A stretch of 64,000 nt of DNA from positions 123,123 through 187,122 of IMG/VR virus record IMGVR_UViG_3300025137_000014, one strand, 5' to 3'. Position 1 is the stretch's first letter. Every line of letters starts with the position of its first letter. This DNA is from a virus. Under the pieces are notes generated by a model that was not told where the DNA came from, searched no databases, and was given only the letters and a program-made list of their open reading frames with translations. Positions 4,384-46,933 of this stretch are shown here, one piece after another. Made by a program: the position numbers and the translations under genes.

Positions 4384-4704
4384 ATGCCTATGGCAGAATA
4401 TGGCGAACTTATGCGACATTCTAATGTCAAGAAACGACTTGAAAGACTTAGAAAATTGCAGAATAAAGTAAAGAACTTAAGAAGGTTCCATAGTGATTTT
4501 GAAAACAAAGAGTTTTTAGAATGGACCTGTATGTCACATGAAGATATTAATTATGAAAAGCTATTAGTTGAAGGTGCTGGATATGTAACACAGTTAGTAG
4601 ACTGGTGTAATGGTCATTGTAATGATTTTTATGTTGCTTATCAAGGAAAATTGTATTTTAAAAATGATACTGATGCGGCGTACTTTACAATGGTGTGGAA
4701 ATAG
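4384..4704 (+). CDS. Hypothetical protein
   Basis: 106 aa ORF with AGGAG RBS. Confidence 0.7.
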   Translation: MPMAEYGELMRHSNVKKRLERLRKLQNKVKNLRRFHSDFENKEFLEWTCMSHEDINYEKLLVEGAGYVTQLVDWCNGHCNDFYVAYQGKLYFKNDTDAAYFTMVWK

Positions 4705-4712
4705 TGTATACT
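4684..4712 (+). promoter_or_regulatory. Sigma70-type promoter (leaderless mini-dnaE)
   Basis: TTTACA-17-TATACT, ATG 6 nt downstream. Confidence 0.6.
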
Positions 4713-4718
4713 ATTAAT

Positions 4719-5309
4719 ATGAATAAAGTAGAAACAGATATCGATATTGATGTTATTGACCGTGACACAGTCCTTACACATTTTCGACACATAATAGCCA
4801 GCATTAAAAAAGGTGATAACTGGACAAAACATAACAGTGGTGTGTATCTACAACCTATTCCATTTGATCCAATATCTGGATTATCTTCTATTGAATACAA
4901 AGAAGCAGAAAAACGAGGATATTTTAAATTAGACTTTCTTAATAATAGTTTATATGAAGGTGTGCGTGATGAAACGCACCTTGATGATTTAATTAAAAAA
5001 GAACCTTTGTGGGATCTACTTCAACATGCAGATATTGTAAAAAATCTTGCACATGTTCATAATCATTTAGATGTTTTAAAAGTAATGAAGCCGAAAAGTA
5101 TAGTAGAACTTGCAGAAGTACTAGCGGTAATTAGACCGGCAAAGAGGCACTTACTCAATGAGAGTAAAAGTAAAATTTCAGAATTAGTTTGGCAAAAACC
5201 AGAAGACGGTACTTACTATTTTAAAAAAGCACATGCGATTGCATATGCAGTAAGTATTGTGGTACAGCTTAATCTATTTTGCGAACAAGTTGAACAGAAC
5301 GCCTCTTAA
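4719..5309 (+). CDS. Truncated DNA polymerase III alpha (DnaE)-like protein
   Basis: TDIDIDV, HNSGVY, YFKLDFL, FKKAHAIAYA match the DnaE PDxDxD, HAxGVV, KxDFL and FNKSHAxAY motifs; only about 196 aa. Confidence 0.8.
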   Translation: MNKVETDIDIDVIDRDTVLTHFRHIIASIKKGDNWTKHNSGVYLQPIPFDPISGLSSIEYKEAEKRGYFKLDFLNNSLYEGVRDETHLDDLIKKEPLWDLLQHADIVKNLAHVHNHLDVLKVMKPKSIVELAEVLAVIRPAKRHLLNESKSKISELVWQKPEDGTYYFKKAHAIAYAVSIVVQLNLFCEQVEQNAS

Positions 5310-5658
5310 TACGTTTCTGTATAATATTTGATAGACTAGTCTCTGGTCCCCATAGAACCTCAACATCTTTTGAATTCATATTTAATATCCAATTCCTATA
5401 CTTGCTAATCTGTGAGCCTAAAAATAAATTAATTGGCATAAGTCTATTTGACTCCCACCACCACTGTTCTCCTAATTCTACGAACTTTTTCCTCAATTCA
5501 GGTGTTGGTATAGCCTCAAAATTATACATCGATGTTATAACCTGGTCTGAATTTATAATTATACCTAAATGCTCAGTAAATTCTTTTTTATTTCCGTATC
5601 TCACGTATGAGAAAAACGGATAATTCTCTTGCATCCATTGTTGTTTTTCATTGTCCAT
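5269..5658 (-). CDS. Hypothetical phage protein
   Basis: 129 aa ORF with late-promoter-like GCTAAATA 5 nt upstream of ATG. Confidence 0.7.
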   Translation of the reverse strand: MDNEKQQWMQENYPFFSYVRYGNKKEFTEHLGIIINSDQVITSMYNFEAIPTPELRKKFVELGEQWWWESNRLMPINLFLGSQISKYRNWILNMNSKDVEVLWGPETSLSNIIQKRIKRRSVQLVRKID

Positions 5659-5696
5659 CGTTATATTTAGCTAAGTTAGAAAAAGGGTCTCTGGGA

Positions 5697-5704
5697 GATA
5701 AATA
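5697..5704 (+). promoter_or_regulatory. T4-like late promoter motif GATAAATA
   Basis: (G/T)ATAAATA recurs upstream of genes at 11620, 14460, 14893, 16039, 18389, 26335, 36490, 41752, 41900, 43530, 47929, 49378, 51173, 59239 (+) and at 2511-2518, 40620-40627 (-); resembles T4 gp55 TATAAATA. Confidence 0.75.
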
Positions 5705-5709
5705 CATAT

Positions 5710-6507
5710 ATGAATTTAAACATGTTTCAATATGACAAAACTATTGAGATTACTTGTGCAGATGGTGACAACACAAGTAGTATGACAACTTACCTGAGGA
5801 ATATGCCAATGTATGACGGACAACACAAACTTCATAAGGGTATTGATAATACTCTTAGATTTAATTTAAGGGACACCGATAGAAAACCTATCGATTTGAC
5901 TACTAAAACTATTATATGGAAAATGTACGATAGAGAAACGAGAGAGAACGTACTATTCAAATACCTTACTGTCACCAACGCAACCAAAGGTATGGCTTCA
6001 TTAACTATATTCACAACAGATACGATAATGCTACCTCAGGGCTTTTATCAATTTGCTATGTACACTGTAGAAAATGGCGTAGAACAAATCATATATACTG
6101 ACACATATGACAATGCTAAAGGTGTAATTGAAGTCATAGATGATGTATACCCAGAATTTGTAGACTCACAAGAAAGCGGGACATTTTTTGATGATGGCTC
6201 TTACTTTATTTCAACTGCTTTCGATGGGTCTTCTTCAACTTCAAAATCAAAGTCTATACACACGATTGCATTATACTTTGATAATTTTTCTGGAACAGTA
6301 TCCATACAAGGTGATTTGAGTGAACAACCAAGTTCGCAACACTCAGATTGGTTTGATATAAATCCAAAGTTATTTTCAAATCCAAATATAACAGTAAACA
6401 ATGAGACTGGTGTTCAAGCATATGTAATCGAAGCAAATGTAAACTGGATCAGAGTAAGATATACTAATACTAGTGGGTCTATCAAAAAAGTTTTACTAAG
6501 AAACTAA
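5710..6507 (+). CDS. Virion structural protein, BppU-like N-terminal domain
   Basis: GIDNTLRFNLRDTDRKPIDLT...NATKGMASLTI pattern typical of baseplate/Ig-like adaptor domains; late promoter. Confidence 0.55.
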   Translation: MNLNMFQYDKTIEITCADGDNTSSMTTYLRNMPMYDGQHKLHKGIDNTLRFNLRDTDRKPIDLTTKTIIWKMYDRETRENVLFKYLTVTNATKGMASLTIFTTDTIMLPQGFYQFAMYTVENGVEQIIYTDTYDNAKGVIEVIDDVYPEFVDSQESGTFFDDGSYFISTAFDGSSSTSKSKSIHTIALYFDNFSGTVSIQGDLSEQPSSQHSDWFDINPKLFSNPNITVNNETGVQAYVIEANVNWIRVRYTNTSGSIKKVLLRN

Positions 6508-6515
6508 TATAACGC

Positions 6516-6544
6516 TTGACTTTTAGGTCTATTTTTGCTATATT
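6516..6544 (+). promoter_or_regulatory. Sigma70-type promoter (leaderless primase)
   Basis: TTGACT-17-TATATT, ATG 6 nt downstream, no SD. Confidence 0.7.
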
Positions 6545-6550
6545 ACTAGT

Positions 6551-7552
6551 ATGGACCTTCAACAAGTAATATTCACACATATCCCTGGAAAGAACAGACA
6601 ATCTAGTGGTGGCTGGACAAGTTTCAACTGCCCATGTTGTATCGAGGAAGGCGAGCCTCGATTGGATACTAGAATGCGTGGGGGTGTTCGTAGCGACGGT
6701 GATTCCATATCATACCACTGTTTTAACTGTGGGTTCACTGCAAGCCACCGTCACGGAAGAATACTCAATAAGAAATTTTTAAAACTCATGCGAAATATGA
6801 ATGTTTCTGAAAGCGAGATTAAGCGTTTACAGTTAGAAGCAATCCGTCAGAAAGAATTGTCTGAAGGTCCATACCTATTTACATCTAAGACACAAGTGAC
6901 ACGTGTTCCAAGTTTTCCTGATACCGAACTACCTGAAGGTTCGGAAGATTTAGAAGTTTTACTAGCAAAAGATAATCCTCCAGAAGGAGCCATCTATGCA
7001 GTTAAATATTTGATTGATAGAGGAGTACATGACAATATAGAAGATTGTTATTGGTCTCCAGATAAGTTTTTTAAAAACAGAGTTATATTTCCATTCTATC
7101 AAGGAGATAGAATAGTGGGGTATACTGCACGTGATATAACTGGTAAGTCTTCATCTAAATACATGACAAAGGCACCGAAGAAATTTTTACATAATGTTGA
7201 TAAGGTAAAATCTAATAATAAATACTTAATCGTATGTGAAGGTATAATCGATGCACTTGCATTAGATTGTATTGCGATTACAAGTAATGAGGCTTCACAA
7301 GACCAAATTGATTATATTAATCAGTTTAAAGGAGAGGTTATTGTTTGTCCCGACAGAGATAAAGCTGGCGAGAAATTAATCAAACAGGCTCAAGAAAATG
7401 GTTGGAGTGTATCTTTCCCTATGTGGGAGGACGATATTAAAGATGCCGCAGATGCAATTCAACGATATGGTAAACTATATACCTTACAAAGTATTATAGA
7501 TGCAAGTATAAGTAACAACACTAAGATAAGTGTGAAAATGAGAATAGGATAA
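6551..7552 (+). CDS. DNA primase (Zn finger + TOPRIM)
   Basis: CPCC...HCFNC zinc finger; CEGIIDAL and PDRDKAG TOPRIM motifs. Confidence 0.9.
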   Translation: MDLQQVIFTHIPGKNRQSSGGWTSFNCPCCIEEGEPRLDTRMRGGVRSDGDSISYHCFNCGFTASHRHGRILNKKFLKLMRNMNVSESEIKRLQLEAIRQKELSEGPYLFTSKTQVTRVPSFPDTELPEGSEDLEVLLAKDNPPEGAIYAVKYLIDRGVHDNIEDCYWSPDKFFKNRVIFPFYQGDRIVGYTARDITGKSSSKYMTKAPKKFLHNVDKVKSNNKYLIVCEGIIDALALDCIAITSNEASQDQIDYINQFKGEVIVCPDRDKAGEKLIKQAQENGWSVSFPMWEDDIKDAADAIQRYGKLYTLQSIIDASISNNTKISVKMRIG

Positions 7553-7555
7553 ACT

Positions 7556-8206
7556 ATGAAAAAAGTTAAAAAAATAATGAGTACAATTATACCAGAACCC
7601 AAAGAACAACCGGCACCGACGCCTCCACCTCCGATGCCAACTCCACCAGTTCCGCCAAAGCCGGCAGGTGAGTTCTTAAGAGAAAATGGTGTATTGTTTA
7701 TGGATAAAGAATTTAATCAAGATAACTGTATGCCTCTTGTAAAAATGATTGTTGAATATAATTTGATGCCAAAAGATAAAGCACCAGAAGTTATTCACTT
7801 GTATATCAATTCACCAGGTGGGTATGTAGATAGTTGTATGCATCTAATTGATACTATCAAGCAATCACGTATACCAGTATATACGTATGGAATGGGGTCT
7901 ATTGCAAGTTGTGGTGTCATGTTAATGATGAGTGGTGCTAAAGGACATCGTTATGTTACACAAAATACCGCAGTCATGTCACATGAATTTTCAGGTGGTA
8001 CAAAAGGTCAATATCACGATATGGTAGAAAGTCGTAAACATATGGACTGGACTAACGAGAAATTAATGGAACACTATATGAAATGTACAGGCAAGACACA
8101 AGCATACATTCGTAAACATATGTTAGCACCTAAGACAGACCATTGGCTTACACCAGAAGAAGCAGTCAAGCATGGTATCGCAGACGAATTAATTACTACT
8201 TACTAA
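7556..8206 (+). CDS. clpP: ATP-dependent Clp protease proteolytic subunit
   Basis: LYINSPGG, IASCG (Ser), MSHEF (His), DHWLTPEEAVKHGIAD; Pro-rich N-terminus. Confidence 0.9.
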   Translation: MKKVKKIMSTIIPEPKEQPAPTPPPPMPTPPVPPKPAGEFLRENGVLFMDKEFNQDNCMPLVKMIVEYNLMPKDKAPEVIHLYINSPGGYVDSCMHLIDTIKQSRIPVYTYGMGSIASCGVMLMMSGAKGHRYVTQNTAVMSHEFSGGTKGQYHDMVESRKHMDWTNEKLMEHYMKCTGKTQAYIRKHMLAPKTDHWLTPEEAVKHGIADELITTY

Positions 8207-8278
8207 CAGATTTCTATTGACTCTTGAGACAAAATCTGTTATTCTAACAGTAAGAATTTTGTAACAAAGGTGGGTCTT

Positions 8279-9229
8279 ATGAAGATTATATCAGGCAATA
8301 GTAATATTGAACTGGCGGCTAAAGTAGCTGAACATTGTTTCACAGATATTGTTCCAGCAGAAATAAAGACATTCGCAGACGGTGAATGTTCAGTAGAATT
8401 TCATGAAAATATTCGAGGAGAGGATGTGTTTATTATTCAAAGCACAAGTACTCCTGTAAATGATAACTTAATGGAATTATTGGTTATGATTGATGCGGCA
8501 AAACGTAGTAGTGCTAGTCGTATCACTGCCGTAATTCCTTATTTTGGTTATGCAAGACAAGATAGAAAGAGTGCATCACGTACTCCTATCACTGCAAAGC
8601 TAGTTGCGAATCTGCTTACAAAAGCAGGCGCAAATAGAGTACTAACAATGGACTTACATGCTGGACAAATTCAAGGCTTCTTTGATATACCTGTAGATGA
8701 TTTAACAAGCAGGTTAGTTTTTGCAAAAGATATTCAAAGACAGATTAGAGTAACAGAAGAACCAATTGTATTTGTTTCACCAGATGCTGGTGGTACAGTA
8801 AGAGCAAGAAAGTTTGCTGATATGTATCATGCCAATTATGCAATAGTTGATAAACGTAGACCCAAAGCAGGCAAGGCAGAAGTAATGAACTTGATTGGTG
8901 AAGTCAAAGGCAAACATGCAATACTAGTAGACGATATTGTAGATAGTGGTGGTACACTATGTAATGCGGCTGAGGCACTATTGGATGCAGGTGCATTATC
9001 TGTTAGAGCATATATTACTCATGGAGTACTAAGTGATAATGCATGTAGTAAAATTGAAAAAAGTAAATTAGATGAACTTGTTATTACTGATAGTATCCCA
9101 TCAATTAATGAGGGTGCTTGGAAAAAGACACGGGCAGTTAGTGTTTGTGGATTATTAGGAGAAGCAATCAGACGAGTCAATAACGAAGAAAGTGTAAGTA
9201 GTTTATTTAAGGTTAAGATACATTCATGA
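8279..9229 (+). CDS. prs: Ribose-phosphate pyrophosphokinase
   Basis: [45 protein letters not shown]. Confidence 0.97.
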
Positions 9230-9651
9230 GAATTAAATTAGATTTAAATAAGATTAATAGTAGGTTACACTGGACAACACTTTATAGTGAAAAATTATTA
9301 TTAGCAATAATTGGATTGCTAACAATGGTTGCGGCTTTTACAGACATTTATGAAATGCTAATCTATTTGAAAGTAGAACTAGGCGACTTGTTCTTGCTTT
9401 TCATTTATGCAGAGATTATAGGAATGGTGGGAGCATTTTATATTAGTAATAGAATACCTGTTACTCTACCTATCATTATTGCTATGACGGCACTTTGTAG
9501 ATTAATTGTTCTACATTCAAAAGAAGCAGACCCATGGATGCTTGTTGCAGAAGCAAGTGCTATTGCAGTATTGGCAGGGGCGGCTTATCTTATGAGTGCT
9601 AAAGAAAAACTGAGTTTAGAAAAAGATAAAATACGTGAGAAAAATAAATAA
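9226..9651 (+). CDS. psiE: Phosphate-starvation-inducible PsiE-like membrane protein
   Basis: [15 protein letters not shown]...[21 protein letters not shown]. Confidence 0.8.
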
Positions 9652-9664
9652 GAAAGGTAATTAA

Positions 9665-10177
9665 ATGTATAAGGTAACGGCATACTTTAGAGACCATAAA
9701 GTTGTTGAAAAGTTTTATAACTTATATGATGCAATAGATTTTAGAGATAGTGCAGATGCTAATTATCCTGAAAACGTAAAATTTGAAAAGGTAATATCAA
9801 TGAGAGAATGGGTAGTAGAATGTTGGAATAGTGTAATGGATATGGAGCATAATCCACTAAAGAATATTCCAGACTTTAGCACACGACATATGATTATGCA
9901 AGTATTAGCATGGATGTGGTGTATTGCGTTTGCATTCATCGTAAGTAGTATGTGGGCAGGAGTAATTAGTATGTTTGTTCATACAGTATTACTAGGAGCC
10001 ATTGCAATCACAGTTGCTACATTTGAAACAGCAAAACGCAAGCCAACTGCATTTAACTTCATAAACGGATATAACTCACATGGTAGAGCAAGGACTTATA
10101 CTATCTGGAGAGATAAAAAAGGTAATGCACATAAAGTACAGTTAGATGCCAATGATCCAGGCGGAGAACACGAATAA
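9665..10177 (+). CDS. Hypothetical membrane protein
   Basis: 170 aa, two TM segments; possible internal start at MREWVV. Confidence 0.6.
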   Translation: MYKVTAYFRDHKVVEKFYNLYDAIDFRDSADANYPENVKFEKVISMREWVVECWNSVMDMEHNPLKNIPDFSTRHMIMQVLAWMWCIAFAFIVSSMWAGVISMFVHTVLLGAIAITVATFETAKRKPTAFNFINGYNSHGRARTYTIWRDKKGNAHKVQLDANDPGGEHE

Positions 10178-10182
10178 ATCAT

Positions 10183-10211
10183 TTGACAATCATCGTTGAA
10201 CAGAGTAGAAT
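10183..10211 (+). promoter_or_regulatory. Sigma70-type promoter (leaderless helicase)
   Basis: TTGACA-17-TAGAAT, ATG 6 nt downstream. Confidence 0.75.
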
Positions 10212-10217
10212 AGAAGT

Positions 10218-11621
10218 ATGGCAGAAGAAGTAAAAGATTACAATTTAGATTTACAGAAATTGTTTGTTCAGTTCATGTTAACTGATCCTGAACTTTATAC
10301 AAGAGTTAGGGCAATAGTAGAGCCTAAGTATTTTGATAGAAATCTAAGAAAAGTAGTTGAACTCTTAGTCAATCATACTGAGGAATACTCTACGATTCCA
10401 ACTACTGAAATTATTAAAGCACAAACTGGACAAGAGATAGAAAAATTAGATGATATCGGTCAACATGCAGATTGGTTTATTGATGAGTTTGAAACATTCT
10501 GTAGGCATAAGGCAATAGAAAGAGCAATCATTGATAGTGCAGACTTACTAGAGACAGGCAAATATGGTGAAGTAGAACTTAGAATTAAAGAGGCAGTACA
10601 AACTGGACTAGCCCGTTCATTAGGTACAGACTATTTTGCAGATCCTAGAGCAAGACTTGAAAAGCTAAAAGATAACAATGGTCAAATTACGACTGGTTGG
10701 AAATCATTAGACGATAAATTATATGGTGGCATCAATCGTGGTGAGATAACTATTTTTTGTGGTGGGTCTGGTGCAGGTAAATCTTTGTTTATGCAAAACA
10801 TGAGTTTGAATTGGGCAGAAGCAGGTTTAAATTGTGTATACTTTACACTTGAACTTTCAGAAGAACTATCAAGTATGCGTATGGATGCGATGCTAACAGA
10901 TAGAAGTACAAAAAGAATTTTTAAAGAATTAGATGATGTAGAATTACAAGTTAGAACTAAAGGCAAATCGTCTGGAATGTTACGTGTTAAGTATCTTCCT
11001 TCTGGTTCCACAGTTAATGATATACGTTCTTATATTAAAGAATTGCAAATACAAACTGGCAAACGAGTTGATTGTATGTGTGTAGATTACTTAGATTTAT
11101 TAATGCCAGCAACAAAGAAAGTATCAGCAAGTGATTTGTTCATTAAAGACAAATATGTAGCAGAAGAAATTCGTAATTTTGCAATGGAAACTGAGACAGT
11201 TTTAGTAACTGCATCACAATTAAATAGAAGTGCAGTAGAAGAAATTGAATTTGACCATTCTCATATCGCAGGTGGTATATCTAAAATTCAAACTGCGGAT
11301 AATGTTATTGGTATCTTTACAAGCCAAGCAATGAGAGAACGTGGACAATATCAGTTACAGCTATTAAAAACACGTTCATCAAGTGGTGTAGGTAGTAAAA
11401 TTAATCTAGTATTTGATAGAGATAGTCTTAAAATCTCAGATGATACAGAAGGGTTAACTGACGACCAAACAACGTCAAATACGATGAGTGTGGTTGATAC
11501 ATTACGACAAAAAACTACAGTAAACGCACCAGAAACTAACACAGAAGCAAAAACTGATGTTGCAATGAACTTGAGAGCAATGTTGAAGACCAAGACACGT
11601 TCTCCTTTTGATGAAAACTGA
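10218..11621 (+). CDS. Replicative DNA helicase (DnaB/T4 gp41-like)
   Basis: Walker A GGSGAGKS, FTLELSE, VDYLDL, TASQLNR. Confidence 0.93.
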   Translation: MAEEVKDYNLDLQKLFVQFMLTDPELYTRVRAIVEPKYFDRNLRKVVELLVNHTEEYSTIPTTEIIKAQTGQEIEKLDDIGQHADWFIDEFETFCRHKAIERAIIDSADLLETGKYGEVELRIKEAVQTGLARSLGTDYFADPRARLEKLKDNNGQITTGWKSLDDKLYGGINRGEITIFCGGSGAGKSLFMQNMSLNWAEAGLNCVYFTLELSEELSSMRMDAMLTDRSTKRIFKELDDVELQVRTKGKSSGMLRVKYLPSGSTVNDIRSYIKELQIQTGKRVDCMCVDYLDLLMPATKKVSASDLFIKDKYVAEEIRNFAMETETVLVTASQLNRSAVEEIEFDHSHIAGGISKIQTADNVIGIFTSQAMRERGQYQLQLLKTRSSSGVGSKINLVFDRDSLKISDDTEGLTDDQTTSNTMSVVDTLRQKTTVNAPETNTEAKTDVAMNLRAMLKTKTRSPFDEN

Positions 11622-11648
11622 TAAATACAGTTAGAACGGAGAAATATC

Positions 11649-11897
11649 ATGGATAAACCTCGTAAGAGCCTATTTGAAGAACTAAATTCTTTAGCTTTTG
11701 ATAAAGAAAAAGAACGTTTAGTGGAGCAAAAAGGTGAACATATCATATCAGGAGCGATAAATCTTATAGAATTTATCAATCGTGAGTTTGATGGCGAGAC
11801 TGCAAATGACTTAACTAAGAGATTAGTTAATAGCATTAGGTCTCAAGATCCGAGAAAGTTTAAACGTGGTATAAAAAGTGTCAAGGCTAAAACATAA
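11649..11897 (+). CDS. Hypothetical phage protein
   Basis: 82 aa with GGAG RBS, after late promoter 11620. Confidence 0.7.
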   Translation: MDKPRKSLFEELNSLAFDKEKERLVEQKGEHIISGAINLIEFINREFDGETANDLTKRLVNSIRSQDPRKFKRGIKSVKAKT

Positions 11898-12118
11898 TGA
11901 CTTTAGAGCAACAGTTAAACAGATTAAAAGTATTATCAGGTATATATAAACCATATCTACCAGAAGAAACTCAACAAGAGAACATATCTTATACTGGTAC
12001 TGAAAAATCTAAACTTCAAAAGAAGCATAATATACAGCCAGGCACAGATGAATGGTTTAAATTATGGTTTGCAAAGCCTCACTTAACTGGCGAAAGACCT
12101 TTTGGGGATAAACAATGA
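11897..12118 (+). CDS. Hypothetical phage protein
   Basis: 73 aa, TAATG coupling. Confidence 0.7.
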   Translation: MTLEQQLNRLKVLSGIYKPYLPEETQQENISYTGTEKSKLQKKHNIQPGTDEWFKLWFAKPHLTGERPFGDKQ

Positions 12119-13461
12119 AGATAAAAGATATATTACAAAAAGGTAGAGAACGTAGGTTTAGAGGACCACGTAAACCTCGTCTTAAGCAAGTAGGATTTCA
12201 TAAGAAATTAAAAGGTTTGTTAGATGGAAAATTACGAGAAGATAAGAATACACACTTAGACCATGCAGAAGAACTAGTATTCATGCATGGCACAGAAGGG
12301 CTGAAACGTGTTGTAAACACTTTCAGTAAACTACTAAACACACTTGATGGACAAGGTGGCGGCGATGCTATCACTACGAAATGGGATGGTTCTCCAGCAG
12401 TATTTTGCGGAACAGACCCATCTGATGGACAATTCTTTGTAGGCACAAAAGGCGTATTCGCAAAAACACCAAAATTAAATAAATCACAAGCTGACATTGA
12501 AAACAATCACCAAGATACTACTAAGAATGGTGAAGAAGTAAGTAAAGCAGGCTTAAGAAATAAGTTATCAGCATCATTAGAGTATCTAAAAGATTTAGGT
12601 ATTGAGGGTGTTATACAAGGTGATTTATTATTCACTAAAGGTGACTTGAAAACTGTTAATATAGATGGCAAATCTCATATTGCATTTAAACCAAATACAA
12701 TCTCATATGTTGTACCAGCAGATAGCAAAACAGCAAAAGAAATGCAGTCGGCTGAAATAGGTATTGTGTTTCATACAAGTTACACAGGCGATAGTTTAGC
12801 AGATATGAAAGCATCATTTGGTTATGATTCAAGTAAACTTAAGTCTTCATCTAAAGTTTGGTTTACTGATGCACGTATTAAAGATGTATCAGGACAGGTA
12901 CAACTAAAGCAAGAAAATGTTGCAAAGATTAAACAAGCAATTAAAGAATTAGCTTCAATGAAAATTGATGCAGATACTTTCAAAGCAATTAATCAAAAGA
13001 TAGGCGCTATTGACTTAGTACAAGCTATTAAGGCACATGCAAACTTGCCGATACGTACTGGTCAAGCATTAGAACCAGATGTAACTAAATTTGTTAAAGA
13101 GTTTTTACAGGGTTTAAATAATAAATTAGATAAAGAAATCAGCGGTTTAGCTACAGGACCTGAAGGTAAAGCAGGACAGGCTAGATTACAAACAAAGGAT
13201 GCATTATCTAATGTCATAAATACATATGAGACACAAATTGCAGAAATGTATCGTGCATATCTTAAAGTTGAAGCAGTAAAAATGATGTTTCAGCAAAAGA
13301 TGAAGAACATTAAAGCAATAGACAGTTTCATTGAACAACCAGACGGTTCATTTAAAGTTACAGATCCAGAAGGATTTGTTATTGTTGACCATGTGGGTAG
13401 AGCAATGAAGATTGTAGATAGATTAGAGTTTAGTGCGGCAAACTTCGCACCAAGGGATTAG
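12115..13461 (+). CDS. Phage protein with ATP-dependent ligase/nucleotidyltransferase-like motifs (DUF6267-like by recollection)
   Basis: TKWDG (KxDG), QGDLLF, PEGFV, MKIV. Confidence 0.6.
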   Translation: MKIKDILQKGRERRFRGPRKPRLKQVGFHKKLKGLLDGKLREDKNTHLDHAEELVFMHGTEGLKRVVNTFSKLLNTLDGQGGGDAITTKWDGSPAVFCGTDPSDGQFFVGTKGVFAKTPKLNKSQADIENNHQDTTKNGEEVSKAGLRNKLSASLEYLKDLGIEGVIQGDLLFTKGDLKTVNIDGKSHIAFKPNTISYVVPADSKTAKEMQSAEIGIVFHTSYTGDSLADMKASFGYDSSKLKSSSKVWFTDARIKDVSGQVQLKQENVAKIKQAIKELASMKIDADTFKAINQKIGAIDLVQAIKAHANLPIRTGQALEPDVTKFVKEFLQGLNNKLDKEISGLATGPEGKAGQARLQTKDALSNVINTYETQIAEMYRAYLKVEAVKMMFQQKMKNIKAIDSFIEQPDGSFKVTDPEGFVIVDHVGRAMKIVDRLEFSAANFAPRD

Positions 13462-13465
13462 TTAG

Positions 13466-13663
13466 ATGTTAAGTAAGAAATGCAAGTTGCACCTAGAAGA
13501 AGTAGGAGAGACACGTTGGCAACATTTTGCACATGCAATGTGGGTCTCTTGGCAATTAGAAAAAGCCGCTTACGCATGTTTTGTACATGCAGTGGCACCA
13601 CGTTGGTTCACTACATACGCTAGTGATAAATGCAATGAAGTATTGCAATCGAGGAAAAAATAA
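13466..13663 (+). CDS. Small protein (DUF6356-like by recollection)
   Basis: HL..VGETRWQHF...HAVAP; similar pattern to 60289..60525. Confidence 0.55.
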   Translation: MLSKKCKLHLEEVGETRWQHFAHAMWVSWQLEKAAYACFVHAVAPRWFTTYASDKCNEVLQSRKK

Positions 13664-14436
13664 TGGAACAGTATAAAGGCAAGTTACAGTTAGTTAATAC
13701 GTTTACAGAGAGTAGGCTGTTTAGAACAAAACAAAATCAAAATAAAACAAATGTAGATGATGCGGCAGAATTAGCATTTTCATACATGATGATTTTGAAT
13801 ATGTTTAATAAAGACTATGAATTTGCTCCGTTGGCAGGCGAGTACGCAGGTAGAACAATGGCGTTTCGTAACTTTGATTATTTTAGAACAAGTGCAACAG
13901 ATTTATATGTAATGATTAATAGATTAATCGGCAAAGAAGTCAATGACGATGATCCAAGAGATAAGATTGCATTAAATCGTATTAGTCTAAAAAGACAAGA
14001 AGCGATACGATATTTAGACCATATAAAATCAAATAAGTCTGAATCAGGATTTGAACAAAGAATGTTACTAAGATTTCAAAGAGATTTAAACATACAAGAT
14101 GGAATGCTTAAATCTATGAGAAGATTAATAGGTGATTGGGATAATTTAAGTCAAAATCAAAAAGCCCTAGTTACTACTAGAATGATGCAATATCTACGTA
14201 GAAAAGCAATGCGTAGTGAGTTGATGCCAGCGTTACAGAAGTTCCAAAAGCGTGGAAACTATGTAGTTAATGATAAAAAAGATACTAAAAAGAACATTTG
14301 GGACAGCCCAATTACTAAAGCAGGCGCGGCTATCGGTGCAATTTATGGTGCAGGTAAGCTAGGAAAGGCTTTAGGCAAGACTTCTTATCAAGATGGTCGT
14401 AATATTGGTGGAAAATTTCAATCCCGAGGCAAGTAA
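13663..14436 (+). CDS. Hypothetical (probable virion) protein
   Basis: 257 aa, C-terminal Gly/Ala-rich basic tail. Confidence 0.6.
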   Translation: MEQYKGKLQLVNTFTESRLFRTKQNQNKTNVDDAAELAFSYMMILNMFNKDYEFAPLAGEYAGRTMAFRNFDYFRTSATDLYVMINRLIGKEVNDDDPRDKIALNRISLKRQEAIRYLDHIKSNKSESGFEQRMLLRFQRDLNIQDGMLKSMRRLIGDWDNLSQNQKALVTTRMMQYLRRKAMRSELMPALQKFQKRGNYVVNDKKDTKKNIWDSPITKAGAAIGAIYGAGKLGKALGKTSYQDGRNIGGKFQSRGK

Positions 14437-14527
14437 ACGCCCCATTTTTTGCAAAAAATGATAAATAAAAGCATAGAGCAATACAATTTTATAATGCTCA
14501 GGATAATATCTATTTAGGAGAACTAAA

Positions 14528-14791
14528 ATGGCAAAAGTACATGAAACATATTCAGCAGGTCAATTCCTTACTGGTAACTTAAATCACTTCACAGTGACAA
14601 AGACTGGTATGGCGGCAGGCGACATGAAAGCAGTAATCGAAGGTGCAGGAACACGTGCTACAGTAGTACTAGTTGGTGCAATCGATGGTAACGATGTAAG
14701 AATCGCAGTAGAAAACAATGGCGCATGGGATGCCGCTGGTTTAGACGCGGCTCTAGGCTCAGACTTTACAGTAGCCGACTTCGCATACTAA
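14528..14791 (+). CDS. Small virion-like protein
   Basis: 87 aa, AGGAG RBS, late promoter, followed by a terminator. Confidence 0.65.
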   Translation: MAKVHETYSAGQFLTGNLNHFTVTKTGMAAGDMKAVIEGAGTRATVVLVGAIDGNDVRIAVENNGAWDAAGLDAALGSDFTVADFAY

Positions 14792-14840
14792 TTTTTACCC
14801 CCCTGGACTTAACAGTCCAACCCACACTTTGCGTGTATTT

Positions 14841-14869
14841 AAAAAGACCCTCTATGAGGGTCTTTTTTT
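14841..14869 (+). terminator. Rho-independent terminator
   Basis: AAAAAGACCCTC-TAT-GAGGGTCTTTTTTT. Confidence 0.85.
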
Positions 14870-14939
14870 ACCTCTAAATTACCTACAGTTTTGATAAATA
14901 CATATAACAGAAATATAAATTTTATATTTGGAGAAAAAT

Positions 14940-15332
14940 ATGGCAAGAATACACGGAGCCGCTAGTGCTGGTGAAAACTTATCAGGTAATATAAACTTTT
15001 ACACTTTATATGTAAAAGGTTTAGACATTACGTCAACTGAAAGCGTAGCAGACCAGACACAACAAAACTTTGATGATGTTATTAACTTAATTTCATTGGT
15101 TGCTCAACCAATCATCATGAATAATCCAATCGCAGTTACACTTGATGGGCTAGCACCGTCGTTAACAGGTTCAGGATTTTTATTTAAATTTGCAGTAGAG
15201 CATGGTAGAGTATTTGAAAGAAACGGAGATACAACTTCCGTTCTTAAAGAATTATTTGAAGGCGTAACTATTGATGGTGTCACATTAGCAGACACTAGTA
15301 ATATTGAATACGTCATGTCAGACATACTATAA
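14940..15332 (+). CDS. Virion-like protein, paralog of 14528..14791
   Basis: MARIHGAASAGENLSGNINFYT versus MAKVHETYSAGQFLTGNLNHFT. Confidence 0.6.
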   Translation: MARIHGAASAGENLSGNINFYTLYVKGLDITSTESVADQTQQNFDDVINLISLVAQPIIMNNPIAVTLDGLAPSLTGSGFLFKFAVEHGRVFERNGDTTSVLKELFEGVTIDGVTLADTSNIEYVMSDIL

Positions 15333-15347
15333 TACTAGGAGTTTGTT

Positions 15348-16019
15348 TTGGATTGGATTGACTTAATAGAATCCAGAGTACAAACCACTACTTGGGATTT
15401 AGAAAAAGAAATTACAAAAGAGACAGTTGAAACTATTATGGATGAAGTCCATAAACGTTCAGCATCCAAACAAAATTTAGTAAGATACGAAATTCAAATA
15501 TTCGATTGGTCAGATACAGATTTTAGAAATCATTTTAATGAACTTTGTATCAGAGAACCATATAAAACACCAGTAGAATATAATACTCAGGTCTTAGCAC
15601 CTTGGTTAATCATATTAAAACGTAGAGAAGGAATACATTGGAATAGAGCAGGTGACCTTACTTCTGACTATCCTGATATAGATTATTCAACACAACTTTA
15701 TAATAGGTTCGTACCAAGTGCTATGGAAACTGGCATAGCATCAGCTAACATAATACTATCAGCTAAAGCAAAGGGATTGGATACTGGGTATTGTCAGTGT
15801 TTTAATTGGAATTACGAACATTCAAATGTTATAAAAGAGAAGTTGGGTATAACTGACCCAAATGACGTATATGTATCTATAGGCTTAGGGCACGGTTCTT
15901 CACTAAAAAGAACACTCAATCTACATACAAATCAATGGCATAATACTTTTGCACATGTTGGAAGCATGTGGGAAAAAGAACCTAAGCCAAATAAAGAAGA
16001 TTATATTAAATTCGCATAA
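15348..16019 (+). CDS. Nitroreductase family protein
   Basis: SASKQN motif; ETGIASANIILSAKAKGLDTGYC. Confidence 0.75.
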   Translation: MDWIDLIESRVQTTTWDLEKEITKETVETIMDEVHKRSASKQNLVRYEIQIFDWSDTDFRNHFNELCIREPYKTPVEYNTQVLAPWLIILKRREGIHWNRAGDLTSDYPDIDYSTQLYNRFVPSAMETGIASANIILSAKAKGLDTGYCQCFNWNYEHSNVIKEKLGITDPNDVYVSIGLGHGSSLKRTLNLHTNQWHNTFAHVGSMWEKEPKPNKEDYIKFA

Positions 16020-16089
16020 AAACTTTCTGAATTAAAATGATAAATACAATCAATGGGATTATAGTTTCCCTAGTTTTGGAGTTAATATT

Positions 16090-16347
16090 ATGGCAGGAAT
16101 TGATAGTAAATTAGCACAGTTAGAGACAGAGAGTTTAGAAACTCATGTTGCTGTTGCACATGAACGATTTAAAAATCTGGATACAAGTATTGTCAGACTA
16201 GAAGGCATAGTTGAAAAAAATGCCGCTGAAACTAAAGAAGGTCTTTCCGAACTTAAGAAAATTATTATCTGGGCAAGTTCTACATTATTTGCTACAATGT
16301 TACTAGCATTACTTACTTCTGTTTTTGGTAAAGGAATGGGATTATAA
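16090..16347 (+). CDS. Coiled-coil protein with C-terminal TM helix
   Basis: Heptad pattern followed by IIIWASSTLFATMLLALLTSVF. Confidence 0.6.
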   Translation: MAGIDSKLAQLETESLETHVAVAHERFKNLDTSIVRLEGIVEKNAAETKEGLSELKKIIIWASSTLFATMLLALLTSVFGKGMGL

Positions 16348-16625
16348 TGCAAGTATTTGAAGTTCTACAGCCAATAGAAGAAGCTAAACTAGTTTATGCT
16401 AGAAAAGGTAGACAGATTGTACGTAAGTATAGATGTTCATCTGGCAGATTAAAAGGTAAAACTGTATCAAGTCCGACATCTTGTTTTAAGCCGGTTGATA
16501 TTAAAAAGAGATTTACTCTTGCAAGAACTAAGGCCAAATTAGGATCAAGACTAAAAAGAAAATCAGCAATGACAAGAAGAATGAACCCAGCAAGTAGACG
16601 TTTAAAAACGTTGAATAAAAGGTAA
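16347..16625 (+). CDS. Basic hypothetical protein
   Basis: 92 aa, Lys/Arg-rich after the EE site. Confidence 0.65.
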   Translation: MQVFEVLQPIEEAKLVYARKGRQIVRKYRCSSGRLKGKTVSSPTSCFKPVDIKKRFTLARTKAKLGSRLKRKSAMTRRMNPASRRLKTLNKR

Positions 16626-16637
16626 GAGGAGGCTATT

Positions 16638-17528
16638 ATGGATTTAAAAAATAAGATTGAAAGGTCTATGAAAACAGAAAGTATAAATGATAAGATTGCC
16701 GACATTGCAGATTTAGTTGGTGAGAAAGAAGAAATTGTACGTGATAGATTAAAGACTTTAGATTTCAGACAGTACATTGAACTTGTTAAAGCAGTTAGAG
16801 AAACAGAAATGGAAACTGCTAGAAGTATATTAGGTCTTGGTATTGAAGAAGCAGAAGAATACTCAGACCAACAAATTAAGATGGCATTTGGAATTTTAAA
16901 TGATCCAAGATACAAACAAGGCAATTACTCAGGTGCACATGCGGCTATTGAAAAAGTTGCAAAAGGATTAGCAAGTCACCCAAGTGTAGCAAATGCACTT
17001 AGACGAGCAAACGAATCAGAAGAACAAATTGCAGAAGCAGAATATGAGTATGATGGCAAAGTTGCACATATATCTCAAGATGAATTTAAAAAAGTACATA
17101 GTGATTTTAAAAATGATACACCAGGCGAAGAACGTATGGTTATTTTAGATCCAGAAACAGGCGGAACAATTTCAGTACTAGTACAATTTACTGATGTAAA
17201 TGAATACAATCAAGGCGGAACAATGTCTCCGGGCGAAATGCGAGGAGCTCAAGCTCAATCACAAGCTCAATCAGGGCAAGATGCGTCCCCACAAAATAAA
17301 ACTAAAAAAGCACAAGCAATGCAACGATTAGGTAAAAAGAATCTAGGTGGTGCAACTGCACAACAGGCGGCAGATGCATTAGATAAAGCAGGACAAGGCA
17401 AAACGCTTACACCAATTCAACGTAAAGCAATGGCCCAACAAGCGGCCTCAGTTGACCAGTTAGCGGCAGACCCAAAAACTGCAACACAGTTTAGAAATTT
17501 ATTAAATAAACTGAACCAAGGGAAATAG
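16638..17528 (+). CDS. Hypothetical head-region protein
   Basis: 296 aa, acidic N-half and Gln/Ala-rich C-half; GAGGAGG RBS. Confidence 0.6.
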   Translation: MDLKNKIERSMKTESINDKIADIADLVGEKEEIVRDRLKTLDFRQYIELVKAVRETEMETARSILGLGIEEAEEYSDQQIKMAFGILNDPRYKQGNYSGAHAAIEKVAKGLASHPSVANALRRANESEEQIAEAEYEYDGKVAHISQDEFKKVHSDFKNDTPGEERMVILDPETGGTISVLVQFTDVNEYNQGGTMSPGEMRGAQAQSQAQSGQDASPQNKTKKAQAMQRLGKKNLGGATAQQAADALDKAGQGKTLTPIQRKAMAQQAASVDQLAADPKTATQFRNLLNKLNQGK

Positions 17529-17532
17529 TTTT

Positions 17533-17727
17533 ATGAGATTACAAGAAGTTTTAGGCGGAATTTACGTAATGATAACTGAGGAAGAAAGCGATTTAGTGCT
17601 TAAATATTTCTCAGAAAATTCATACGTACATGAAACGCAATTATCTGACAGAGAACAGGTAGTTGCAGAAAGACTATCACACAAAGGCGTGATTGTACCT
17701 TCATTAAGAGGGTACAGGGCTGTATAA
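17533..17727 (+). CDS. Hypothetical protein
   Basis: 64 aa in operon. Confidence 0.65.
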   Translation: MRLQEVLGGIYVMITEEESDLVLKYFSENSYVHETQLSDREQVVAERLSHKGVIVPSLRGYRAV

Positions 17728-17738
17728 CGGAGGACAAA

Positions 17739-18380
17739 ATGACTGGACCAAGTAGAGCAGATGTAGGTGCAATGGCAAATCTTCTTAAAGCTATGAATGG
17801 CGATAAGAGTGGATTAAAAGCACAGGCAGAAGCAAGACAATCTCAGGGTGGGAACGAGACTGTAGATGTAAGTCCCGGTGTAAAAACTGCGGATATTAAA
17901 GCGATGGAAAACATTATGAGAAATTTCCAGAGTGCTACATCAAACGTTGCGGCAAAAGTTGCAACTACAATTAATGAATCAAAAAAAACCGAAAAAGGAG
18001 TACAGGTAGGTATATATTCTGTAGAAAAAACTCCCGACACATCATTTAATATTTTAGATAGCAGAACAAATGATACTCTATTTGAAGATTTGAGAGCATA
18101 TGAAACAGCATATGTGATTGTACATCATTTAAATGAAGGTAAAAAGATTAATTCACAAGAGGTAACAAACGTTATTTCAACTAATGCAGTATTCGAAAAA
18201 TTCTATTTCGATGCTTTACAGCATAAGAATACTTATAAACAAGCAAAGAAGCGTGGTGATTTCGGCAAAATGGATATTGCAGAAGCTAGATTTAGTAGAG
18301 CAAAAGCAGAAGCCTGGAACGCAAAAAAGCAAGTAAATGAGATATTTGAGGCTGTGTCTAATCAAAAACCACTAATTTAA
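17739..18380 (+). CDS. Hypothetical protein
   Basis: 213 aa, GGAGG RBS. Confidence 0.65.
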   Translation: MTGPSRADVGAMANLLKAMNGDKSGLKAQAEARQSQGGNETVDVSPGVKTADIKAMENIMRNFQSATSNVAAKVATTINESKKTEKGVQVGIYSVEKTPDTSFNILDSRTNDTLFEDLRAYETAYVIVHHLNEGKKINSQEVTNVISTNAVFEKFYFDALQHKNTYKQAKKRGDFGKMDIAEARFSRAKAEAWNAKKQVNEIFEAVSNQKPLI

Positions 18381-18434
18381 TTTAAAAAGATAAATACATA
18401 ATATAAACACATATTATGTAATGGGGCAATTACC

Positions 18435-19271
18435 ATGAGAAGTACAAACTTTTTTAAGACAGATACAATAATGATATCGTCAAAACTAAATGAGTATCTT
18501 AAGTCAAACTTTAACTATTCAGTTGAAGGAGATTTAAAATCATTAAGCGAGGCTAAAGATAAGCTGGAAGCGGCTAAAAAAGCAATGCGTTCAGACTATC
18601 AAAACCGTGAGTATGTAGAAACTATGATGATGCTAGAAACAGTAAAATCATTGTTAAAAGCACACAAAGAGCAATCACTAGACGAAGGTGGAAAACACAA
18701 GTATGTCAGTGATGCACAACGTAAAGCAGTTCACGCCAAGAAGGCCGAAGAAAACACTAAAACAAAGGAACCAAAAATGGAAAATACAGATAAAAAATCT
18801 GCCGAGGTTTCTAATGAAAATTTAGAAGACAGTCTTTTAGCACAGTTGAATAAACTACTAGAAGGTGATGCGGCTGAGGCTGAAATTACAATGGCGGCAC
18901 GTGGTATCGTAGATGAACTACAAGACGTTATCGAAAAATTAGGCAAAATTCAAAACGACCAGATAGGACCACTATCTGATGAAATGGCTTACACACATGG
19001 ACCAGAACAATCAGAGACATTTAAATCTTCTGTTGATTCAGCAATCTCTAGTTTACTAGATACGGCTCGTTCAACTAAAGATGCAGTAAATAATGCGGCT
19101 CTAGTTCTTTCAGGTGAAGCACCGGCAGGAGATATGGCACCAGCAGACAATGAACTTGGTGGCGATATGCAAGATGATATGGAAGATGATATCACGGCAG
19201 ACCTAGCAGGTGGTGATGAGTCAGCATCAGGTGAAATTGATGAACCATTAGGCCGTGCAAAAAGAGACTAA
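18435..19271 (+). CDS. Acidic coiled-coil protein, prohead scaffold/core-like
   Basis: 278 aa, repeated LxE sites, very acidic C-terminus, late promoter 18389. Confidence 0.5.
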   Translation: MRSTNFFKTDTIMISSKLNEYLKSNFNYSVEGDLKSLSEAKDKLEAAKKAMRSDYQNREYVETMMMLETVKSLLKAHKEQSLDEGGKHKYVSDAQRKAVHAKKAEENTKTKEPKMENTDKKSAEVSNENLEDSLLAQLNKLLEGDAAEAEITMAARGIVDELQDVIEKLGKIQNDQIGPLSDEMAYTHGPEQSETFKSSVDSAISSLLDTARSTKDAVNNAALVLSGEAPAGDMAPADNELGGDMQDDMEDDITADLAGGDESASGEIDEPLGRAKRD

Positions 19272-19273
19272 TA

Positions 19274-19597
19274 ATGAAACTTTCAAGTCTGTTAAGTGAA
19301 GATGCAAACTACAATGCACAGATGCGTAATGATATAAATGCGTATCTAGTGAGATTAAAAGCAAATGATATTGGTACCGTTGGTACTGATATGATGGTTG
19401 ACGAATTGACAGATATGGGGTACAGTGTTACTCCAGAAAGTTTAGTTGATATGTTAGCTAATAGCAAATATGTTAGCAAAGTAACAGTTGATACTATTGA
19501 TTTAGCTGGAGCCCCATCCGGTAAAACTGATAGTGATGAAGACGGTGAGAAAGTTAAAAAACTTGCTATTAAAACAGCGAAGAAGAGGATAAAATAA
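19274..19597 (+). CDS. Hypothetical protein
   Basis: 107 aa in operon. Confidence 0.6.
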   Translation: MKLSSLLSEDANYNAQMRNDINAYLVRLKANDIGTVGTDMMVDELTDMGYSVTPESLVDMLANSKYVSKVTVDTIDLAGAPSGKTDSDEDGEKVKKLAIKTAKKRIK

Positions 19598-20040
19598 TGG
19601 GCTTAATTATTAAAGGCGAACACAAAATTATTTCTAAAAAAGAAATGCAAGATAAGGTTGCTCAGGAAATAGAAAATAACGTTCAAGATGGAACTGAAAA
19701 ACTGTCTGATTCTCAAAAAGAAATTCGTAAAGAAATCGCTAGTGCAAAAAGACATCGTGAATTTATGCAAAGAGTTGCAGATAAGAAAGCGGTATCTACT
19801 AGAGAAGAACGTAAGATTGTTGAGAAAGAAGTTATCGAAACACCTGAGATTATTGTAGAAGCAAGAGCAGAAAAAGAAGCAGTATTGGCTTCTAAATCTG
19901 TATCACTTGCACAAAGACCAGATTTTGATTCAATGACTAAAAAAGAAATAGATATGTGGGCTGATGAAAATCTAGGTTTAACACTAGACCGTAGAAAAAC
20001 AAAAGCTGATTTAATCAAACAAATCAACGAAAATCTATAA
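19597..20040 (+). CDS. Hypothetical protein with C-terminal helix-extension-helix-like domain
   Basis: DFDSMTKKEIDMWA..LGLTLDRRKTKADLIKQI resembles Rho-N/HeH. Confidence 0.5.
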   Translation: MGLIIKGEHKIISKKEMQDKVAQEIENNVQDGTEKLSDSQKEIRKEIASAKRHREFMQRVADKKAVSTREERKIVEKEVIETPEIIVEARAEKEAVLASKSVSLAQRPDFDSMTKKEIDMWADENLGLTLDRRKTKADLIKQINENL

Positions 20041-20047
20041 ATAATAC

Positions 20048-20076
20048 TTGCATTGTTTGAATTTTTGTAGTATACT
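20048..20076 (+). promoter_or_regulatory. Sigma70-type promoter (leaderless exonuclease)
   Basis: TTGCAT-17-TATACT, ATG 6 nt downstream, no SD. Confidence 0.65.
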
Positions 20077-20082
20077 ATAAGT

Positions 20083-20772
20083 ATGCTAAATGAAAAATTC
20101 AAATATGAACCAATGGAGCGTGTTAATGTAGATGGCTCACGCCATTATCAAACACCTGGAGGCAAGCCATTGCCAAGTGTAACTACAGTACTAGATGCAC
20201 TTAAAGATAAAACAGCAATATATGAGTGGCGTAAAAGAGTAGGCGATGAAGAAGCAAATCGTATTATGAAACTTGCCACAGGCATAGGTACTCAAGTTCA
20301 CTTACATGTCGAAAAATTTATACTTGATGAAGATAGACCAAATGGTACAAATCTTATTCATCAAATGTCAAAAGAATTATCAAACATTATTATTGAAAAG
20401 GGACTCTCAAACGTAGATGAAGTTTGGGGCACAGAAGTTCCTTTATACTATCCCGGATTATATGCAGGTACTACGGATTGTGTTGGCGTATGGAAAGGCA
20501 AACCTGCTATCATTGATTTTAAGACTACTCGTAAACCAAAAAAGCGTGAATGGATTGATGATTATTTTTTACAAGGTGCCGCATATTCAGCCGCACATAA
20601 TGAAATACATGGAACAGATATCAAAACTATCGTAATCATGATGATTGGTTGGGATGAAGAAGCAGACAATAAAGGCAATTATCAAGAATTTGTTGTAGAA
20701 GAAAACGAATTTAGCAAGTATTCACTGCAATGGGCCAACAAGGTTCAAGAGTATTTTGATAAATACATGTAG
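20083..20772 (+). CDS. PD-(D/E)XK exonuclease
   Basis: LPSVTTVL, GTQVH, EVPL, AGTTD, IIDFKT, QGAAY. Confidence 0.88.
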   Translation: MLNEKFKYEPMERVNVDGSRHYQTPGGKPLPSVTTVLDALKDKTAIYEWRKRVGDEEANRIMKLATGIGTQVHLHVEKFILDEDRPNGTNLIHQMSKELSNIIIEKGLSNVDEVWGTEVPLYYPGLYAGTTDCVGVWKGKPAIIDFKTTRKPKKREWIDDYFLQGAAYSAAHNEIHGTDIKTIVIMMIGWDEEADNKGNYQEFVVEENEFSKYSLQWANKVQEYFDKYM

Positions 20773-20788
20773 TAACTAGGAGTTTTAG

Positions 20789-21574: not shown

Positions 21575-21575
21575 T

Positions 21576-22016: not shown

Positions 22017-22054
22017 ATACATATATAATTAACTACATAAATACGAGAAAGCAA

Positions 22055-36017: not shown

Positions 36018-36108
36018 CTATTGACATGTCAATACAACCTATGTTATAATACAGAATATGATGCACAATTCGTGTGTTTTATTGTTTAATAAACTTAAGG
36101 AGGATGTA

Positions 36109-36462: not shown

Positions 36463-36466
36463 TTTG

Positions 36467-36497: not shown

Positions 36498-36501
36498 TAG
36501 A

Positions 36502-43465: not shown

Positions 43466-43567
43466 ATACTAAATCAGTACTAAGCTATACGAAAGTATAA
43501 CGTAGAAGTTAAATTCTCCTTCCTATTTAGATAAATACAGATGAGGTCTACTAAGAAGGAGAATATT

Positions 43568-45118: not shown

Positions 45119-45135
45119 TAAAGAAAGCATAAACA

Positions 45136-46407: not shown

Positions 46408-46933
46408 GGAAGAAGGGCGAAAGCCTTTCGTCATTGCCAATCAACGTATTCGTGCAGACGAGTTACGTGTGGTAACAGACCAAGGTGAACAACTTGGTGT
46501 CATGCAAAAAGATGAAGCACAACAAAAGGCTGATGCCGAAGGACTAGATTTAGTTCTGATTGTTCCTAATGCAAATCCTCCAGTAGCAAAGATTATTAGT
46601 ATTAATAAATACAACTACGAAATTAAAAAACGTGACAAAGAGAAGGCAAAATTAGCCAGACAAAGTTTAGTTGAAGTTAAAGAAGTTAAGTTTAGACCAG
46701 CTATAGGTGAGAACGACCTAAAGATGAAACTTATGCAGGTTCAAAAGTTTATTGACAAAGGCAATAAAGTAAAAGTGACAATACAAATGAGAGGCAGAGA
46801 GAATTCTAAATCAAGTGAAGTTTTAGATTTCTTCAATTCCCAAATCTCTGAGTACTTAAGTAGTTTTAAGTATGACCTCCCTCTAAAAACTAATGGGAAT
46901 AGAATAATAGGTATAGTAATAAAAAATGACTAG
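46391..46933 (+). CDS. infC: Translation initiation factor IF-3
   Basis: [42 protein letters not shown]. Confidence 0.93.

Follow-up and report, generated by a model that had tools for sequence, protein, structure and literature searches.

The final 64 kb of a 187-kb viral contig in IMG/VR (record IMGVR_UViG_3300025137_000014, positions 123,123 to 187,122; hereafter the window, in whose own numbering features are placed) come from an uncultured marine giant phage and hold four genes whose start codons lie directly behind promoters. These genes encode a homologue of gp264 of the Pseudomonas jumbo phage PA5oct, a primase, a DnaB-like helicase and an exonuclease. At each of them the -10 hexamer ends exactly 6 nt before the ATG, and no Shine-Dalgarno (SD) sequence precedes the start. 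We consider it likely that all four are expressed as leaderless mRNAs from promoters of their own. Promoter geometry, absence of an SD, use of ATG and conservation among relatives all point to genes built for leaderless expression, as a first-pass annotation of the window had proposed.

Four promoters placed against start codons

The gp264-like gene (4719..5309 (+), 196 aa) lies behind a sigma70-type promoter, TTTACA-17-TATACT, at 4684..4712 (+), with its -35 at 4684-4689, inside the 3' end of the upstream gene (4384-4704), and its -10 at 4707-4712. The DnaG-type DNA primase, which has a Toprim domain and an N-terminal zinc finger (6551..7552 (+)), is preceded by the sigma70-type promoter TTGACT-17-(TGc)TATATT at 6516..6544 (+), with hexamers at 6516-6521 and 6539-6544. 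For the DnaB-like replicative helicase (10218..11621 (+)) the sigma70-type promoter is TTGACA-17-TAGAAT at 10183..10211 (+), with the -35 at 10183-10188 and the -10 at 10206-10211, and it occupies the 40-nt gap behind the preceding gene. The PD-(D/E)XK-type exonuclease (20083..20772 (+); PHROG 298), the orthologue of PA5oct gp244, follows the promoter TTGCAT-17-TATACT at 20048..20076 (+), whose -35 and -10 are at 20048-20053 and 20071-20076 and whose -10 region is conserved as TAGTATAMT. The spacing of 6 nt before the ATGs at 4719, 6551, 10218 and 20083, reported in the first-pass annotation together with the lack of an SD, can be read directly from the letters.

All four sites have T at -1 and A at +1, and no SD 4-mer occurs at -4 to -15 of any of the four starts. 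Hexamers resembling TTGACA and TATAAT, 16-18 bp apart and kept against a variable spacer, mark the promoters as sigma70-type, the -35 of the exonuclease promoter being weak. Sequence features expected of a leaderless gene, namely a -10 ending about 5-8 nt from the start (here exactly 6), no SD and an ATG, are present at all four. With -10 hexamers conventionally numbered -12 to -7, an ATG that follows after 6 nt would have its A at +1. That these promoters fire, and that transcription starts on this A, is what we infer from the sequence. The four genes are packed 14-43 nt behind same-strand neighbours, and no terminator-like site was found on the plus strand just upstream of the four promoters.

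On the mechanism that we propose, each gene would carry its own host-type (sigma70) promoter, at which host RNA polymerase would start on the A of the AUG and so produce an mRNA with neither 5' leader nor SD. Such an mRNA would be translated as leaderless messages are, its 5'-terminal AUG being bound by a 70S ribosome together with fMet-tRNA. The four genes would then be early or middle units of one gene each, co-oriented with the virion clusters that enclose them and that are driven by promoters of the GATAAATA class; no terminators were seen between these units and the virion clusters. A gene without an SD would be translatable only from the transcript of its own promoter and would thereby be shielded from late read-through, at a saving of about 25 nt per gene. 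Such insulation from late read-through may be the rationale of the arrangement. The first-pass annotation had also contrasted these genes with early genes that have leaders, and the contrast holds where it was checked, at prs and at the genes at 27094, 36109 and 42950; the sigma70-type promoter of prs, for example, at 8217..8245 (+), is followed by a leader of about 27 nt with the SD AAAGGTG.

The genome is AT-rich (GC about 33%), and CheckV puts the completeness of the contig at 51%; complete marine relatives are known, of 328-343 kb and with terminal repeats. Ranked by DnaB helicase, the nearest cultured relatives are the PA5oct group of Pseudomonas jumbo phages (55% protein identity), followed by Phosso, Atu_ph07, Vibrio phage 2.275.O, SCTP-2 and XaC1. 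The stretch from 4719 to 22659 shares its gene order with PA5oct gp264 to gp239; in this block the replication genes are interspersed, in one orientation, among genes for virion proteins that mass spectrometry verified in PA5oct. Between primase and helicase (7556-10177) the window has an insertion of ClpP, ribose-phosphate pyrophosphokinase (Prs), a PsiE-family protein and a 170-aa unknown gene, unlike PA5oct, in which primase and helicase are adjacent.

The gene at 4719 had been called a mini-dnaE. PHROG 11778, to which the protein belongs, is labelled 'DNA polymerase', and an AF2 model (pLDDT 84) searched with Foldseek against the PDB gives Pol III alpha or PolC for all of its top 17 matches, with E values of 0.007-0.5. 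This is a weak resemblance in fold, and the protein has no match in Pfam and no sequence match in the PDB. A product resembling the core of Pol III alpha or PolC is thus plausible from the model, while the label is not established.

Conservation and placement of the layout

For each gene, up to 80 related IMG/VR loci were fetched and their distinct upstream sequences were scored for the layout, defined as a promoter with 4-9 nt between the end of its -10 and the start codon. Of 41 distinct sequences upstream of the primase, 40 keep the layout, and in 30 the distance is exactly 6 nt; this holds down to about 37-40% protein identity. All 47 exonuclease sequences keep it, the distance being 6 nt in 42 and 9 nt in 5, and 46 of them have T at -1. 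In the same loci, control ATGs have a promoter at 4-9 nt in 5.1% of cases and at exactly 6 nt in 0.7%. The other two genes have the layout in close relatives only. For the helicase it is found in 11 of 66 sequences (3/3 at at least 85% identity and 4/16 at 70-85%), while in other clades the gene either has a promoter and an AGGA-bearing leader of about 20 nt or begins with a TTG that GAGGA precedes. For the gp264-like gene it is found mainly in close relatives (6/6 at about 85% identity or above, 6/51 below). Conservation of the spacing, on which the first-pass annotation had staked its claim, is therefore seen for all four genes, but to very different depths.

In more distant relatives the gp264-like gene shares an ATGA stop/start overlap with the gene upstream; at 64-80% identity (L252-L287) that upstream gene ends ...VWK-TGA, overlapping the ATG. 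In the sub-clade of the window (4690-4718) about 14 extra bases create the -10 and codon changes create TTTACA. Because the distant relatives have the overlap instead, this promoter appears to have been gained recently.

In information profiles of the upstream regions the -35, the -10, T(-1) and the ATG stand out, while spacer and discriminator are variable. Orthologues adjacent to a promoter start with ATG in 106 of 110 cases, compared with 80 of 101 other orthologues (Fisher P = 1.7e-4), and lack an SD 4-mer in 104 of the 110. Leaderless mRNAs need a 5' AUG, and the near-obligatory ATG of the promoter-adjacent class fits that need. The start codons themselves appear to be correctly placed: homologues align from residue 1-7, the primase ATG is the sole in-frame start upstream in most relatives, and the primase N-terminus M-[DEN]-[LI]-Q-Q is conserved from ATG 6551 onward. 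Coding-type variation starts at codon 2, and in the exonuclease third codon positions are the most variable from codon 2 on.

In the complete relative G001, scanned with a cut-off of 9/12, clean promoter-fused starts belong to the gp264-like gene, the primase, the helicase, the exonuclease (kept at 8/12, below that cut-off) and an AMP-binding enzyme. In PA5oct itself the exonuclease gp244 has TTGACA-17-TATAAT-7-ATG. The PA5oct primase gp261 has TTGACA-17-TATAAT followed by GTGCGC and then GTG, so that a first, annotated GTG (L324:18944-18958) abuts the -10 hexamer and a second, in frame, lies 6 nt after it. Because it abuts the -10, the annotated GTG is probably outside the transcript, and the start probably mis-annotated. 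In Salicola phage SCTP-2 the primase (MF360958.1 around 160150-160281, L344) has TTGACA-16-TAGCAT-6-ATG. Its annotation begins about 40 codons too late, given that the conserved N-terminus MDLLKQ...FNCPCC begins at the promoter-fused ATG.

The AMP-binding (adenylate-forming) enzyme of G001, of 454 aa (L329:2069-3467; G001:C1:82069-83467), has TTGACT-17-TATAAT 5 nt before its ATG, and the -35 of this promoter overlaps a terminator-like hairpin.

The number of promoter-like words is in itself uninformative. Scoring promoters by matches to the 12 consensus bases, we found 91 such words, with 94 expected from shuffled sequence; raw counts thus equal the shuffled expectation, and therefore only placement and conservation carry weight. 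Placement was assessed across the whole contig at a threshold of at least 10/12. Among its 8064 ATGs, seven have a promoter ending exactly 6 nt upstream, and five of these are starts of open reading frames (ORFs), against about 0.2 expected (Poisson P ~3e-6). The contig is otherwise SD-dominated: an SD of at least 4 nt precedes 68% of its 238 ORF-genes, compared with 10% of internal ATGs, about 13% of ORF-genes have no detectable SD, and genes internal to operons nearly always have one. A stricter pattern count (TTGAC-N18-TANNNT-N6-ATG) over five genomes gave 18 matches, with 2 in the reversed control, and was dropped, the three PA5oct matches not being annotated starts.

A late-type counterpart and the alternative explanations

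A second promoter-start fusion, not of the sigma70 type, lies within the same block. The late-type box GATAAATA at 5697..5704 (+) ends 5 nt before the ATG of a virion structural protein gene (5710..6507 (+)), the orthologue of PA5oct gp262, which has been detected in virions by mass spectrometry. All 15 distinct upstream sequences, those of the 14 relatives at 62% identity or above and that of PA5oct, preserve the arrangement [GCT]ATAAATA-5 nt-ATG; at PA5oct gp262 it reads TATAAATA-cgtgt-ATG. The T4 late box spans -13 to -6, so ATG 5710 would also be +1. The word [GCT]ATAAATA resembles that box and lies 20-45 nt upstream of many SD-led genes. It has the form of a T4-type late promoter, an 8-bp box like TATAAATA with no -35, and 38 of its 62 occurrences fall within 100 nt upstream of gene starts. 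Among the genes behind it are those for ribonucleotide reductase, orthologues of virion proteins known from PA5oct and an operon of membrane protein, ClpX, IF3 and bS21; since the box also precedes ribonucleotide reductase genes, the GATAAATA class may act at middle times too, and not just late. Units of this class lie on either side of the exonuclease, of the helicase and of the primase.

Because virion gene 5710 appears to use the leaderless route with a late-type promoter, leaderless initiation is, as far as sequence can tell, a minority route in both promoter classes and not a programme confined to replication. The term replication regulon, used in the first-pass annotation, covers too much: an SD precedes UvsX and the ribonucleotide reductase genes, while the AMP-binding enzyme of G001 and virion gene 5710 share the layout.

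Several observations weigh against leaderless expression of the four genes. The exonuclease promoter has a weak -35 (TTG plus weak bases) and matches the consensus at 8/12. The PA5oct primase, with GTG, is an exception to the use of ATG, and a 5'-GUG works poorly in E. coli. Folding energy over the first 45 nt is uninformative, two of the four genes being unusually unstructured there and the other two average. Several other strong promoters of the contig have an ATG at about +1, yet an SD-led start lies 5-17 codons downstream, and PA5oct has ATGs of this kind at promoter +1 that are not annotated starts. Since several such ATGs precede SD-led starts, an ATG at +1 is on its own no proof of a leaderless gene.

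Three other explanations were weighed. The first accepts the promoters as real but assigns most of the protein output to longer, read-through RNAs, on which ribosomes would initiate independently of an SD, for instance where AU-rich RNA is bound by S1; the 6 nt would then be simply the tightest packing that keeps the ATG in the transcript. The close packing of the genes behind same-strand neighbours without terminators would allow this, as would the AT-rich genome and the share of ORF-genes that lack a detectable SD. Yet even pure packing would put the AUG at the 5' end of the RNAs made from these promoters; internal operon genes of the contig nearly always have an SD; and the ATG is near-obligatory in the promoter-adjacent class and not in SD-led orthologues, with T(-1) and A(+1) conserved. 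We therefore regard read-through as an unlikely main source of these proteins. Chance occurrence of functionless promoter-like words in AT-rich intergenic DNA would account for a total count no higher than in shuffled sequence, but is excluded, in our judgement almost beyond doubt, by the placement statistics and by a geometry that is conserved across 37-98% protein identity.

The remaining explanation, put forward in the first-pass annotation, gives the phage control over the choice of initiation route. The window does encode, side by side as that annotation had stated, a full-length IF3 with N and C domains (46391..46933 (+)), whose start overlaps the end of a clpX-like gene, and the ribosomal protein bS21 (46926..47201 (+)). 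The late-type box GATAAATA at 43530..43537 (+) fronts the operon to which they belong. Driven by this promoter, phage IF3 and bS21 would re-tune host ribosomes, shifting the balance during infection between a leaderless replication class and an SD-led class. Raised IF3 is known to inhibit model leaderless mRNAs in E. coli (PMC9031893), and the Thermus phage phiYS40 is reported to pair leaderless middle and late mRNAs with a rise in host IF2 and a fall in IF3 (PMC3594737). IF3 is also present in all three complete marine relatives, which carry both genes. PA5oct, however, has an exonuclease and a primase of the leaderless type and no IF3, while bS21 is found in PA5oct and in all four marine relatives tested, and because it occurs in every relative tested its presence cannot be correlated with the layout. 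Moreover, IF3 made late would penalise the conserved late-type leaderless virion gene, and some replication genes are SD-led. Reasonable as the switch is in principle, these comparisons leave it unsupported, and we think it quite improbable.

The operon at 43568-47201 (membrane protein, ClpX-like ATPase, IF3 and bS21), together with the phage ClpP and a transfer-messenger RNA (tmRNA), looks like a quality-control and translation set.

Other features of the contig, and comparison with known systems

The tmRNA is of the permuted, alphaproteobacterial type (36454-36788 (+); Rfam alpha_tmRNA, 122 bits; ARAGORN tag ANANYQPEMAMAA); upstream of it are a promoter that matches the consensus at 12/12 (36021-36050) and a 117-aa gene. 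Because it is of the alpha type, the host is probably an alphaproteobacterium. A manA RNA motif (Rfam RF01745, 58 bits) at 39424-39621 (+) lies directly 3' of a strong promoter, TTGACA-17-TGnTATATT, at 39374-39402.

Outside the window, an early-promoter cassette is repeated, consisting of AAAACTTGACAAnATAGCGAATCGTG..TATAGT/TATTAT and then a leader of about 25-30 nt ending in an SD of the AGAGAGG type. Copies are found at G000:C1 about 380-420, 3510-3570, 10090-10140, 48820-48880, 49840-49906, 50260-50317, 114900-114975 and 116420-116491, and around half of them have an ATG at about +1. Some strong promoters are followed by two ATGs in one frame, the first 0-9 nt past the best -10 hexamer and the second, SD-led, 9-17 codons further on, as at 36058/36109 and 42917/42950 of the window and at G000:C1 7802/7829, 49879/49906 and 116461/116491; the gap from -10 to ATG is about 6-9 nt at most of these promoters and 0 nt at 42917. 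Such pairs could be dual starts, or the first ATG could be incidental. An unbiased scan for a frame bias of +1 ATGs toward the SD-led start gave about 6 in frame and 3 out, which is not convincing.

If our explanation of the four sites is right, giant phages of proteobacteria would use leaderless initiation deliberately, for a small conserved gene set and in SD-dominated hosts, and a gene without a ribosome-binding site could sit in a late operon and yet be expressed only from its own early promoter. Annotation would gain as well, given that gene callers that seek an SD misplace such starts, as with the primase of SCTP-2 and probably that of PA5oct. Were the IF3/bS21 proposal to hold, it would amount to a virus-encoded switch between two initiation routes. 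PA5oct is in culture and RNA-seq data for it exist, which makes the central claim directly testable.

PA5oct (Arenbergviridae) is among the closest known systems. It depends on host RNA polymerase and is sensitive to rifampicin, and TTGAC and TATAATA motifs are found at its RNA-seq start sites, in a paper that does not mention leaderless mRNAs (PMC7318152); in the literature searched, leaderless mRNAs are not reported for any PA5oct-like phage. It shares with the phage studied here the syntenic replication/virion block, promoter-start fusion at gp244, gp261 and gp262, and a gene for bS21. It differs in that protein identity is only 28-57%, that it has no IF3, and that its helicase is SD-led and directly behind the primase. 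Jumbo phages of the RaK2, Asteriusvirus, CBB and Atu_ph07 types likewise have a primase that follows a virion gene and has its own TGnTATAAT-type promoter. In these types, however, a leader of about 25 nt carrying an AAGGA or GAGGA SD separates that promoter from the start; a primase promoter with a leader of this length and an SD was seen in RaK2, JNE01, CBB, Atu_ph07 and Vibrio 2.275.O. Because RaK2-type phages keep the promoter with an SD leader, comparison of these upstream regions indicates that the primase promoter module is old and that the leaderless state is a variable form of it.

Leaderless mRNAs as such are well known, from lambda cI transcribed from PRM and from genes of Deinococcus-Thermus and Actinobacteria in which the -10 lies directly upstream of the ORF (PMC12340547, PMC10491246), while among other giant phages dRNA-seq of phiKZ found no leaderless mRNAs and AR9 has long untranslated regions. 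The four genes resemble the known cases in having a -10 a few bp before the start, no SD, a 5'-terminal AUG (here predicted) and a required minimum distance to the ATG. They are unlike them in having a full -35/17/-10 promoter, in belonging to a giant phage of an SD-dominated, probably alphaproteobacterial host, in being known from sequence alone, and in being a mere handful, mostly replication genes embedded in virion clusters. The large phage phiYS40 also has leaderless transcripts: its middle and late mRNAs are reported to be mostly leaderless, with host IF2 rising and IF3 falling (PMC3594737, PMC12340547, citing Sevostyanova et al. 2007), and leaderless expression has there been linked to the balance of IF2 and IF3. 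phiYS40 is reported to lower host IF3, whereas the present phage adds an IF3 gene of its own, which would push in the opposite direction, and has few such genes, mostly with host-type promoters. Leaderless phage mRNAs are thus already known from lambda cI and phiYS40, and the four genes described here are a well-supported further case.

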